Shown: piece by piece, positions 2,433 to 5,329 of the stretch
How the letters are laid out: each line of letters opens with the position of its first letter
How positions within the stretch are numbered: the stretch's first letter is position 1
Source: a virus
Taxonomy: Duplodnaviria; Heunggongvirae; Uroviricota; Caudoviricetes
DNA: 5,329 nucleotides
Virus record (IMG/VR): IMGVR_UViG_2529292735_000011
Strand: one strand, 5' to 3'
The notes under the pieces: generated by a model
What the model was told of the DNA's origin: nothing
The model's input: the letters and a program-made list of their open reading frames with translations, nothing else
The model's database searches: none
Position numbers and translations under genes: made by a program

Positions 2433-2910
2433 CTCAGTAGCGCCACTAACAGCGTGTCTGAAACGCAGGCTGCAACGCCGAAAGCAGTAAAGGCCGCGTA
2501 TGATCTTGCTAACGGGAAATATACTGCGCAGGATGCCACCACAGCGCGAAAAGGCCTTGTCCAGCTCAGTAGCGCCACCAACAGCGATTCTGAAACGCTG
2601 GCGGCAACACCAATGGCGGTAAAGGCAGCATATGACCTTGCTAACGGGAAATATACTGCGCAGGATGCCACCACAGCGCGGAAAGGCCTTGTCCAGCTCA
2701 GTAGCGCCACCAACAGCACGTCTGAAGCACTGGCCGCAACACCGAAAGCGGTAAAGACAGCATATGACCTTGCTAACGGGAAATATACCGCTCAGGACGC
2801 TACGACAGCACAAAAAGGGATTGTCCAGCTAAGCAGCGCGACTAACAGCACATCTGAAACGCTTGCCGCGACACCGAAAGCAGTGAAAGCAGCTAATGAC
2901 AATGCGAATG
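2433..2910 (+). repeat. In-frame 132-bp tandem repeat inside H (about 3.5 copies, 44-aa unit [44 protein letters not shown])
   Basis: Unit starts at 2433, 2565, 2697 and 2829, all exactly 132 nt apart. The first three copies are near-identical at nucleotide level; the fourth diverges after about 60-80 nt. The repeat also generates the spurious antisense ORFs 2313..2813 and 2429..2719. Confidence 0.9.
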
Positions 2911-3668
2911 GTCGGGTACCTTCTGCCCGTAAGGTGAATGGTAAGGCGCTTTCAGCGGATATTACACTGACGCCGAAAGATATTGGTACGCTTAACTCAA
3001 CAACTATGTCATTCAGCGGTGGTGCTGGTTGGTTCAAATTAGCAACGGTAACCATGCCGCAGGCGAGTTCTGTTGTTTCAATTACGTTGATTGGTGGCGC
3101 GGGATTTAACGTGGAGTCACCTCAACAGGCAGGTATATCTGAACTTGTTCTTCGTGCGGGAAATGGAAATCCAAAAGGTCTTACTGGTGCGTTATGGCGA
3201 CGGACATCGGTTGGATTTACTAATTTTGCATGGGTGAATACATCCGGTGATACCTATGATGTTTATGTTGAAATAGGTAATTACGCCACAGGTGTTAATA
3301 TTCAATGGGATTATACCAGTAACGCCAGCGTAACGATTCATACTTCACCAGCATATTCTGCTAATAAGCCGGAAGGATTAACGGACGGTTCTGTTTATTC
3401 GCTGTATATTTCGCCTCATGAACTTTATCCGGTTGGCGCACCGATCCCTTGGCCATCAGATACCGTTCCGTCTGGTTATGCCCTGATGCAGGGGCAGACT
3501 TTTGACAAATCTGCATACCCGAAACTTGCAGTCGCTTATCCGTCAGGCGTGATCCCTGATATGCGTGGCTGGACTATCAAGGGCAAACCTGCCAGTGGTC
3601 GTGCCGTATTGTCTCAGGAACAGGACGGCATTAAATCGCACACCCACAGCGCCAGCGCATCCAGTACT

Positions 3669-3758
3669 GATTTGGGGACGAAAACCACATCGTCGTTTGA
3701 TTACGGTACTAAAACGACCAGTTCATTTGATTACGGCACAAAAACCACAAATAGCGCA
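3669..3758 (+). repeat. Three tandem 30-nt / 10-aa units in the H distal region ([10 protein letters not shown] / [10 protein letters not shown] / [10 protein letters not shown])
   Basis: Read directly from the translation and nucleotides. The copies differ at synonymous positions, so this is an older protein-level repeat rather than a recent duplication. Confidence 0.55.
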
Positions 3759-4036
3759 GGAGCTCATTCACACAATATACCTGTTGGTCACACTGGCGCG
3801 GGGAATGGTGTATCAGCCGGTTATAACGCTGCGTTAGGTACTGGTACCACGTCGAGCGCAGGAGGGCATGCTCACAATGTATATATCGGTGCCCATAACC
3901 ACACTATCGGCATTGGTGCTCATGCCCATTCTGTCATTATTGGTCCCCACGGACACACCATCACCGTTAATGCTACGGGGAACGCAGAAAACACCGTAAA
4001 AAACATCGCATTTAACTATATTGTGAGGCTTGCATA

Positions 4037-4615
4037 ATGACATTCAGAATGAGTGAACAATCACGGACCATAAAAATTTATAATCTACTGACCGGAACCA
4101 ATGAGTTTATTGGTGAAGGTGATGCACACATTCCACCTCATACAGGTCTGCCTGCAAACAGTACCGATATTGCCCCGCCAGATATTCCGGCTGGCTTCGT
4201 GGCCGTTTTCAACAGTGATGAGGCATCGTGGCATCTCGTTGAAGACCATCGGGGTAAAACGGTTTATGACGTGGCATCAGGGGACTCGTTATTTATTTCT
4301 GAACTCGGTCCATTACCGGAAAATGTTACCTGGTTGTCGCCGTATGGAGAGTATCAAAAGTGGAACGGCACATCCTGGGTGAAAGATGCAGAAGCAGAAA
4401 AACTGTTTCGGATAAGGGAGGCGGAAGAAACAAAAAACAGCCTGATGCAGGTAGCCAGCGAGCATATTGCGCCACTTCAGGATGCCGTAGATTTGGATAT
4501 TGCAACGGAGGAAGAGGCATCGTTACTGGCTGCATGGAAGACATACCGGGTATTGTTGAATCGTGTTAATACAGCGGTAGCAGCGGAAGTTGAGTGGCCA
4601 GTCGCCCCACAATAA
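4037..4615 (+). CDS. tfa: Tail fibre assembly chaperone (lambda Tfa-like, with a P2 gpG-like C-terminal end)
   Basis: 192-aa ORF whose ATG overlaps the H stop (TAATG), with GTGAGG upstream. The sequence [54 protein letters not shown]... is very close to my recollection of lambda Tfa. The C-terminal ...[26 protein letters not shown] resembles the conserved end of P2 gpG. It sits immediately downstream of the fibre gene, as cognate chaperones do. Confidence 0.85.
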
Positions 4616-4621
4616 AGAGAA

Positions 4622-4651
4622 AAAGCCATCGATTGAAATATAGATGGCTTT
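4622..4651. terminator. Bidirectional rho-independent terminator between the convergent tfa and acetyltransferase genes
   Basis: Perfect 9-bp inverted repeat AAAGCCATC (4622-4630) / GATGGCTTT (4643-4651) around a 12-nt loop, with a GC core GCCATC/GATGGC. On the minus strand the stem is followed by TTTTTCTCTTTATT; on the plus strand by TTTATGT. It lies in the 43-bp gap between the two stop codons (4615 and 4659). Confidence 0.6.
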
Positions 4652-4658
4652 ATGTACT

Positions 4659-5231
4659 CTATTTATACAATACAACACCGCTCTTTTTAGTTATATATGT
4701 GCAGTTCGATGGTATATCTTTATTTATAAAAGACATTGCACCTATTTTTACATTATCCCCAATTTTACGTGATAATCCAATGATGCAACAATTAGCTCCG
4801 ATATCAACGTTACTACCAATTTTTACTCTTGAACCAGGCATGTCACCATCTATCTGCCCAATGGTAGTATTCTGCCGTAACACCAGATTTTCACCAGCAT
4901 CAACAGCAAAATGAACAACAATTCCAGCATGATGGGGAATTGTTAACCCTTTTCCAATATTTGCGCCCAATCCAATTTCACAACCAAATTTGTTAATTAT
5001 TTTATTGTTTAACTTTTTGGCTGCTGTCTTATGTAATTTATTACCATTAATATACATTTCGTTAGCCAACCGCCACCAGAAAAGGAAATTCCGGTTACGC
5101 TGTTTTTTCTCTCTTAAAAGCCTCCAGATATCCATACGTTTCCGCCGAATTACTTCATATTTCCAGAAGTTTTTTAAATTAGTAGAGTTCCCAAATAAAA
5201 CAAAGTGAATTGCCATTAAGTAAGACAGCAC
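4659..5231 (-). CDS. Hexapeptide-repeat (left-handed beta-helix) O-acetyltransferase, WcaB / serine acetyltransferase (CysE) family-like; AT-rich cargo gene
   Basis: Minus-strand ORF with stop TAG at 4659-4661. The six-frame track extends it to 5264, but the best start is the GTG at 5231-5229, which lies 6 nt after a strong SD AAGGAG (5243-5238). An ATG at 5216 is an alternative. The core ...GCEIGLGANIGKGLTIPHHAGIVVHFAVDAGENLVLRQNTTIGQ...VKIGSNVDIGANCCIIG...IGDNVKIGAMSFINKDIP has the [LIV]-G-x-x-x-x hexapeptide periodicity and the I-x-H-H-x-G-I-V-V motif of the CysE/WcaB/NodL transferase family. It is visibly AT-rich with A/T-rich codons, unlike the upstream phage genes. Confidence 0.75.
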   Translation of the reverse strand: MLSYLMAIHFVLFGNSTNLKNFWKYEVIRRKRMDIWRLLREKKQRNRNFLFWWRLANEMYINGNKLHKTAAKKLNNKIINKFGCEIGLGANIGKGLTIPHHAGIVVHFAVDAGENLVLRQNTTIGQIDGDMPGSRVKIGSNVDIGANCCIIGLSRKIGDNVKIGAMSFINKDIPSNCTYITKKSGVVLYK

Positions 5232-5282
5232 GATAATCTCCTTAATTATTATTTCAGACCACACATGTTATAAGGTTAAGAG

Positions 5283-5311
5283 ATTATAAAATCCTGTTGT
5301 TTGTTATTCAA
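5283..5311 (-). promoter_or_regulatory. Candidate sigma70 promoter for the acetyltransferase gene
   Basis: On the minus strand: TTGAAT (plus-strand 5311-5306), a 17-nt spacer, then consensus TATAAT (5288-5283), about 50 nt upstream of the GTG at 5231. AT-rich DNA produces such hexamers by chance, so this is sequence-only support. Confidence 0.45.
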
Positions 5312-5329
5312 AAACAATTTTCTGAGAAG

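Follow-up and report, generated by a model that had tools for sequence, protein, structure and literature searches.

Control region of a cargo acetyltransferase gene in a P2-like prophage: a candidate promoter, a start codon placed by comparison and flanking terminator-like hairpins

The window analysed here is a stretch of 5,329 nucleotides of DNA from a virus of the class Caudoviricetes (IMG/VR record IMGVR_UViG_2529292735_000011). It carries tail genes on the plus strand and, convergent with the last of them, a single cargo gene on the minus strand. The genes and the module discussed below are the following, position 1 being the first letter of the window.

W, J, I, H (tail fibre) and G/tfa (tail-fibre assembly), plus strand: P2-type tail genes
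4037-4615, plus strand: tail-fibre assembly gene G/tfa
2981..4615, plus strand: C-terminal (tip) region of the fibre and the tail-fibre assembly gene; both are part of a single recombining module that also contains the cargo gene and moves as a unit
4659..5231, minus strand: cargo gene for a 190-aa acetyltransferase (PHROG 2154), convergent with G/tfa

E. coli O26:H11 11368 carries a P2-like prophage with which the final 1.9 kb of the window are 99.7% identical. In this prophage, and in 496 complete E. coli genomes overall, the cargo gene follows the stop codon of gpU at a distance of 157 bp and on the same strand. Ahead of it, the related genomes harbor the co-oriented late tail operon in the gene order FI-FII-E-E'-T-U. 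This FI-U block is inverted with respect to P2, where all genes from V to D read in one direction. While the gpU-cargo junction is present in 496 E. coli genomes, about 850 carry a close gpU homologue without it. The terminal 15 bases of the window represent the 3' arm of a junction-specific hairpin, which argues that the window shares the gpU-cargo arrangement.

In a related complete prophage (NC_013361.1, 2,398,384-2,405,960), the entire FI-FII-E-E'-T-U block is inverted with respect to P2 and D and ogr have the P2 orientation, so that D is parted from the pF operon, to which it belongs in P2. The similarity to other gpU genes stops there 6 nt past the gpU stop codon. The same prophage contains a second cargo block, a His-Xaa-Ser radical-SAM cluster hxsDBCA between D and ogr (locus positions 36125-39522), as well as a hok/gef toxin gene after ogr.

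Within the window, the tail-fibre gene H (plus strand) reads GGCTTTTG at 2423-2426, compared with GGCTTTG in O26:H11 11368. The additional T results in two ORFs (1889-2440 and 2454-4037) instead of a single protein of 711 aa, and the split H is either a pseudogene or the product of a homopolymer sequencing error. Between 2454 and 2850 (plus strand), the tail-fibre protein comprises three to four near-identical repeats of 44 aa (~132 nt; Phage_fiber_2, four stretches), which also produce long antisense ORFs in the ORF list. A match to the Rfam family IS009 (RF02111) at 4380-4578 on the plus strand, with 192 bits against a gathering score of 117, lies wholly within the tail-fibre assembly CDS; this “sRNA” family may just be a conserved tfa coding segment.

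The GC content amounts to 33-37% over 4650-5250 and to 45-62% across the tail genes. By this low GC content and by its slot and orientation, which are those of fun(Z) in P2, the acetyltransferase gene is a horizontally acquired cargo gene; the earlier note on this DNA had likewise regarded it as cargo. A moron (Hendrix, Juhala) is an additional gene that is equipped with a promoter and a terminator of its own and has been inserted between conserved genes of a phage. In the present case, the composition of the gene is unlike that of the surrounding phage genes, and the relatives have either no such junction, as in the gpU-bearing genomes counted above, or another gene in its place, as with fun(Z) in P2.

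Altogether, the gene was found in about 10% of the complete E. coli genomes (530/5426), including the O157:H7, O26 and O111 EHEC lineages. It evolves with a dN/dS of 0.08-0.20, and this range includes copies in decayed prophages (an O157 remnant and a yfhH remnant) in which the late genes are deleted, disrupted by IS elements or frameshifted and the late programme is no longer possible. Since purifying selection persists in these remnants, an expression of benefit to the host cell can be argued for. A role in lysogenic conversion is suggested by analogy only, and the alternative of a defence cargo found no support in a search that returned 0 PADLOC families at E <= 0.01.

Outside phages, among 80 species-level loci, members of the family occur as orphan single genes between unrelated housekeeping genes, with neighbours such as an MCP and a TonB receptor, MFS transporters, EF-G and isocitrate dehydrogenase. 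A member located beside NeuB-type sugar synthases is found in Pseudomonas and Halopseudomonas.

The control region upstream of the cargo gene and the sequences that flank the transcription unit contain the following features, all on the minus strand.

5315..5329: 3' arm of a long, imperfectly paired hairpin that separates the stop codon of gpU from the cargo promoter; its remainder is located past the window end (window-equivalent 5330-5372)
5310..5314: U5 run directly past this hairpin, running into the -35 hexamer, whose first two bases it includes (TTTTTGAAT)
5306..5311: -35-like hexamer TTGAAT, 4/6 matches to TTGACA
5283..5288: -10 hexamer TATAAT, 6/6 matches, with 17-nt spacing from the -35 hexamer
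5276..5277: A residues 6-7 nt past the -10 hexamer, predicted from the sequence as the start of transcription, which would give a leader of ~45 nt
5238..5244: Shine-Dalgarno sequence UAAGGAG (AAGGAG at 5243-5238), 6 nt ahead of the GTG
5229..5231: start codon GTG, in frame with the GTG at 5264 of the ORF track
4611..4651: terminator-like hairpin (4651-4622) and U-rich tail between the convergent cargo and tfa/G genes

Re-reading of the minus strand confirmed every motif coordinate given in the earlier note. In a promoter scan, TTGAAT-17-TATAAT reached 10/12 matches; two further sites in the window score as high, both of them on the plus strand. Promoter-like sites are not enriched window-wide, with 6 found and 6.5 +/- 2.7 in shuffled sequences, and a match of at least 10/12 within the 156-nt spacer upstream of the gene arose in 5.1% of 5000 dinucleotide shuffles. 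By itself, the promoter motif thus exceeds chance only weakly in this AT-rich DNA. The hexamer AAGGAG has a single occurrence in the whole window, both strands considered, and the combination of Shine-Dalgarno sequence and start codon is well supported by comparison with related copies. The leader is without a significant fold (z = 0.26) and without a match to an Rfam family. The activator site of P2 late promoters for Ogr/Delta, TGT-N12-ACA at about -55, is absent across the 12.8-kb locus. As it is missing even ahead of FI, which must have a late promoter, this simple pattern is uninformative here.

The comparison among prophages speaks partly for and partly against the promoter. In its favour, between O26-type and O157-type prophages only 1 of the 156 spacer bases differs, and this change is sited between the -35 and -10 hexamers; the flanking genes of the same pair show 16/489 (gpU) and 16/573 (acetyltransferase) differences. 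One spacer difference or none would be expected with P ~3e-7 at the synonymous divergence of ~0.11 and with P = 0.05 at the overall coding rate, and mosaic recombination could also explain this low divergence. Also in its favour, the copy in the P1-like phage JL22 is preceded by unrelated DNA with a TTGACA-18-TAAAAT site of its own (11/12; P = 0.02 in shuffles). Evidence against the promoter comes from the copies in a different myovirus prophage, located at yfhH. Their homology begins at window position 5315 and takes in the promoter region, but TTAAAT and TACACT stand in place of the two hexamers, and the stretch from the -10 hexamer to the Shine-Dalgarno sequence is heavily substituted. Over the 84 nt upstream of the gene these copies are 78.6% identical, compared with 94.1% for the coding region, an upstream divergence of about the synonymous rate. 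Since the hexamers are changed and the upstream divergence is close to the synonymous rate, no constraint on the hexamers is visible across contexts.

A shifted TTTACA-18-TAATAT site (9/12) exists in one of the two yfhH copies. Also against the promoter, the more distant homologues do not share a promoter-like site consistently, and phage phiNP carries the gene 25 nt behind hicAB, the two probably being transcribed together. In favour of it, related genes elsewhere stand singly as orphans, each with an upstream spacer of its own, and are found on virulence plasmids, at prophage ends, beside integrases and between unrelated housekeeping genes. The literature yielded no published transcript or protein data, transcript mapping or functional study of this gene. 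Taken as a sequence motif, TTGAAT-17-TATAAT is a plausible candidate for a sigma-70 promoter.

Both ends of the unit show potential for termination. The built-in terminator scan missed the two hairpins because of a loop of more than 8 nt and an imperfect stem, and folding was used instead. The hairpin previously claimed downstream of the gene is present, with the arms AAAGCCAUC...GAUGGCUUU at 4651-4622 and a U-run behind them. Its 71-nt segment folds at -18.1 kcal/mol (z = -3.0), and five lineages retain it, differing only within the loop and the inner stem. The cargo gene is hence predicted in silico to possess its own conserved terminator directly downstream. The upstream hairpin is long, imperfect and AU-rich at its base. 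Its full length, seen at 6756-6813 on the minus strand of a related-genome locus, has a folding energy of -20.5 kcal/mol (z = -4.07) that none of 200 shuffles reached, and the final bases of the window match it exactly. Together with the U5 run, it is probably the terminator of the inverted FI-U tail operon, arranged back to back with the cargo promoter.

The claim that the gene is expressed independently of the late operon has to be divided accordingly. It holds for the convergent V-G operon, but it is not self-evident for the co-oriented FI-U operon located 157 bp upstream. As the gene follows this operon on the same strand at such a short distance from gpU, read-through from FI-FII-E-T-U is possible; as the two are parted by a hairpin and a U5 run, independence is likely, although not guaranteed.

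The main rival explanation, which we regard as unlikely, sets expression from the upstream tail operon against autonomous expression. According to it, the promoter match is fortuitous or silent, and the enzyme is made mainly as the product of the last gene of FI-FII-E-T-U by read-through in the lytic cycle. Silencing by H-NS, which commonly acts on AT-rich foreign DNA in E. coli, would be one way to a silent promoter. The co-orientation with gpU, the local chance probability of ~0.05 for a site in a window where such sites are as common as in shuffles, and the yfhH lineage with its degraded hexamers and still intact ORF all fit this explanation, as does the P1-like C-segment, in which one orientation places the gene behind expressed fibre genes. 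However, a transcript from gpU would have to pass the -20.5 kcal/mol hairpin and the U5 run, and purifying selection on the ORF continues in prophage remnants with deleted or frameshifted late genes. A strong Shine-Dalgarno sequence on a separate leader is typical of an independent unit, and many genomes carry the gene as an orphan. In addition, an analogous cargo gene at the same site, neaT of a P2-like prophage in strain CFT073 (“moron position 2” between G and FI), gave a transcript in broth from a clone that included 211 bp of the DNA upstream of it, described as the promoter region (PMC3573123).

The product of the cargo gene belongs to PHROG 2154, a family of “unknown function”. The Pfam model Hexapep scores 23.6 bits, just below its cutoff of 27. 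The best PDB matches are serine acetyltransferases (E = 7e-14), with which the catalytic His and the acidic residue align, and these findings place the protein in the hexapeptide-repeat (left-handed beta-helix) acyltransferase superfamily. In the predicted structure, the helical N-domain is confident and the beta-helix has a pLDDT of about 50-60. All fold matches obtained by Foldseek are serine acetyltransferases, with a TM of up to 0.70 and an E of only about 1e-3. Owing to the low confidence of the beta-helix and to these E values, the structure model adds little beyond the sequence matches.

Scores against NCBIfam models, given with their curated cutoffs, were 74.1/150 bits for EpsC, 62.6/210.65 for cysE (TIGR01172), 54.3/196 for WcaB and 39.7/397 for the long-form CysE (PRK11132). 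By sequence, the protein falls within the CysE/EpsC/WcaB branch, yet it lies far below every curated cutoff. An assignment as an equivalog of CysE was rejected by these scores, and likewise an assignment as an equivalog of WcaB or EpsC.

The idea that the gene encodes a genuine serine O-acetyltransferase of the CysE type, which would rewire the cysteine and sulfur metabolism of the host rather than modify a glycan, has to be weighed here. Every best sequence or structure match is a CysE enzyme, the databases use the name “serine acetyltransferase”, and the orphan distribution next to unrelated genes fits a small-molecule substrate. Nevertheless, we consider this improbable, given the large distance to both CysE cutoffs and the length of 190 aa compared with about 273 aa, with a much shorter N-domain. 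CysE binds CysK via its C-terminal tail, and the C-terminus ...VVLYK of the cargo protein is unlike this tail. The Arg-His pair that we take to bind the substrate carboxylate in CysE structures aligns with Ser-Arg, at a position that is variable in the family. Moreover, the top NCBIfam matches include the polysaccharide enzymes EpsC and WcaB. The shorter length, the different C-terminus and the missing conservation of the presumed carboxylate-binding residues favour an acceptor other than serine, and we infer a glycan or another non-serine molecule.

The length of 190 aa presupposes translation from the GTG at 5231. The earlier note had considered the start at 5264 in the ORF track an over-extension, and RefSeq, the family alignment, the JL22 copy and codon changes among relatives agree on this. 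RefSeq annotates a 573-nt CDS from the equivalent of GTG 5231 in every record inspected, so that the corrected start already is the RefSeq annotation, and the identical 190-aa product is found on 537 contigs. Among 24 family members aligned to the window protein (45-97% identity), most start at the residue equivalent to 5231 (M-x-x-Y-L); a few have short N-terminal extensions, none of them resembling the 11 codons from 5264. Phage JL22 has an ATG at the position equivalent to 5231, and its DNA homology ends at window position 5223, just within the gene. A block of 23 nt, TAATAATTAAGGAGATTATCGTG, is identical in the P2-like and the yfhH lineages despite the 78.6% identity of the whole upstream region. 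By comparison, GTG 5231 is thus strongly supported as the true start.

Translation from GTG 5264 (201 aa), the first start codon following an in-frame stop and an ATG in TB06051, or from ATG 5216 is very improbable and was rejected by comparison: the codon at 5264 has no Shine-Dalgarno sequence ahead, lies only ~12 nt downstream of the predicted transcript start, is ATA in strain OkiPb01700 and opens an extension that has no counterpart in the 24 homologues and is not reached by the JL22 homology, whereas ATG 5216 is located 21 nt from the Shine-Dalgarno sequence and is ATA in three lineages. For the JL22 gene deposited as “sacF” (locus positions 4100-4576), the start given is an internal ATG, leading to 158 aa. 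The ATG aligned with GTG 5231 of the window yields the full protein of 190 aa, and the deposited sacF start is probably too far downstream.

Taken together, positions 5229-5311 are best read as the 5' control region of an autonomously expressed moron that consists of one gene and is carried by a P2-like E. coli prophage, and we assign this a probability of roughly 0.6. Promoter activity, transcription start, terminator efficiency and substrate enter it as what we infer from the features described above. A sigma-70-type promoter (TTGAAT, 17 nt, TATAAT) would start transcription near 5276-5277 and give rise to a leader of ~45 nt bearing the strong Shine-Dalgarno sequence UAAGGAG. Translation would begin at GTG 5231, not at 5264, and produce a cytoplasmic acetyl-CoA-dependent acetyltransferase of 190 aa with the serine-acetyltransferase fold. 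The hairpin and U-run at 4651-4611 would end the transcript and also part the cargo gene from the convergent tail-fibre operon, and the strong hairpin with the U5 run abutting the -35 hexamer would probably terminate the co-oriented late tail operon FI...U. In the lysogen, most of the expression would come from the gene's own promoter, and some read-through may occur late in infection. The enzyme would most likely O-acetylate a glycan of the cell envelope or a precursor of it, as a case of lysogenic conversion, and not serine. As a probable self-contained unit with a defined start, the gene should be easy to clone, to delete and to assay. If the enzyme modifies the cell envelope, important pathogens could be altered in their susceptibility to phages, their serology or their interaction with the host.

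Beyond its expression, the gene is of interest for its company. The window segment 2981-5223 extends over the fibre tip, tfa, the terminator and the acetyltransferase and matches the invertible C-segment of the P1-like phage JL22 at 92.6% identity, and the segment 3428-5315 is 87% identical to the different myovirus prophage at yfhH. The convergent tfa-acetyltransferase layout, at 36-44% protein identity, was also found in Hafnia phage yong2, E. coli phage 613R2 and Citrobacter phage phiNP. A universal link to tfa across the family was rejected, since tfa lies directly downstream in only 6/80 species-level loci; the link holds for the phage-borne copies. This co-inheritance suggests a possible functional tie of the acetyltransferase to receptor recognition. 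The authors of the JL22 study noted the gene and stated that the reason for its presence was unknown. We tentatively propose, as a possibility of rather low probability, that the acetyltransferase is coupled to the linked fibre tip and acetylates the surface glycan (LPS core, O-unit or ECA) recognised by this tip. If so, a phage gaining the cassette, whether P2-like, P1-like with its C-segment or another, would at the same time gain a matching superinfection exclusion for its lysogen, and PHROG 2154 would be a family of receptor-masking enzymes co-inherited with receptor-binding proteins. Only the linkage to the fibre module and the substrate are of some wider interest; the regulation follows the known moron pattern.

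Among known systems, fun(Z) of P2 is the closest in arrangement. It occupies the same slot between G and FI, is encoded on the minus strand, convergent with G, has an annotated terminator in between, and is described in the P2 annotation as a non-essential lysogenic-conversion gene. In contrast, its product of about 528 aa, which blocks T5, is unrelated to the 190-aa acetyltransferase. The upstream neighbour differs as well, being the divergent pF promoter in P2 and the 3' end of the inverted FI-U block here. neaT resembles the cargo gene as a single AT-rich gene for an acyl- or acetyltransferase, oriented opposite to the tail genes and with a “nomadic” phyletic distribution (PMC3573123), a term that also describes the distribution of the present family outside phages. 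However, NeaT is a membrane protein of the acyltransferase_3 family (PF01757), whereas the cargo protein is a soluble left-handed beta-helix enzyme, and there is no sequence relationship between them.

With CysE, WcaB and EpsC, the cargo protein shares a helical N-domain followed by a left-handed beta-helix, aligned catalytic His and acidic residues and a TM of about 0.69; it differs by its shorter N-domain and by scores below all cutoffs. A further hexapeptide-repeat enzyme of prophage origin is NeuO of CUS-3, a polysialic-acid O-acetyltransferase encoded beside the tailspike gene which modifies the surface glycan of the lysogen. NeuO belongs to another branch of the hexapeptide family, is phase-variable via heptanucleotide repeats and resides in a P22-like podovirus. 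The moron concept itself is matched by the atypical composition, the flanking terminator, the promoter-like element and the absence from most related prophages. It differs in that the cargo gene moves linked to the fibre-tip and tfa genes and not alone, and in that the promoter is here a candidate predicted from sequence. The locus is thus an ordinary moron layout at a known P2 cargo site and not a new kind of element.
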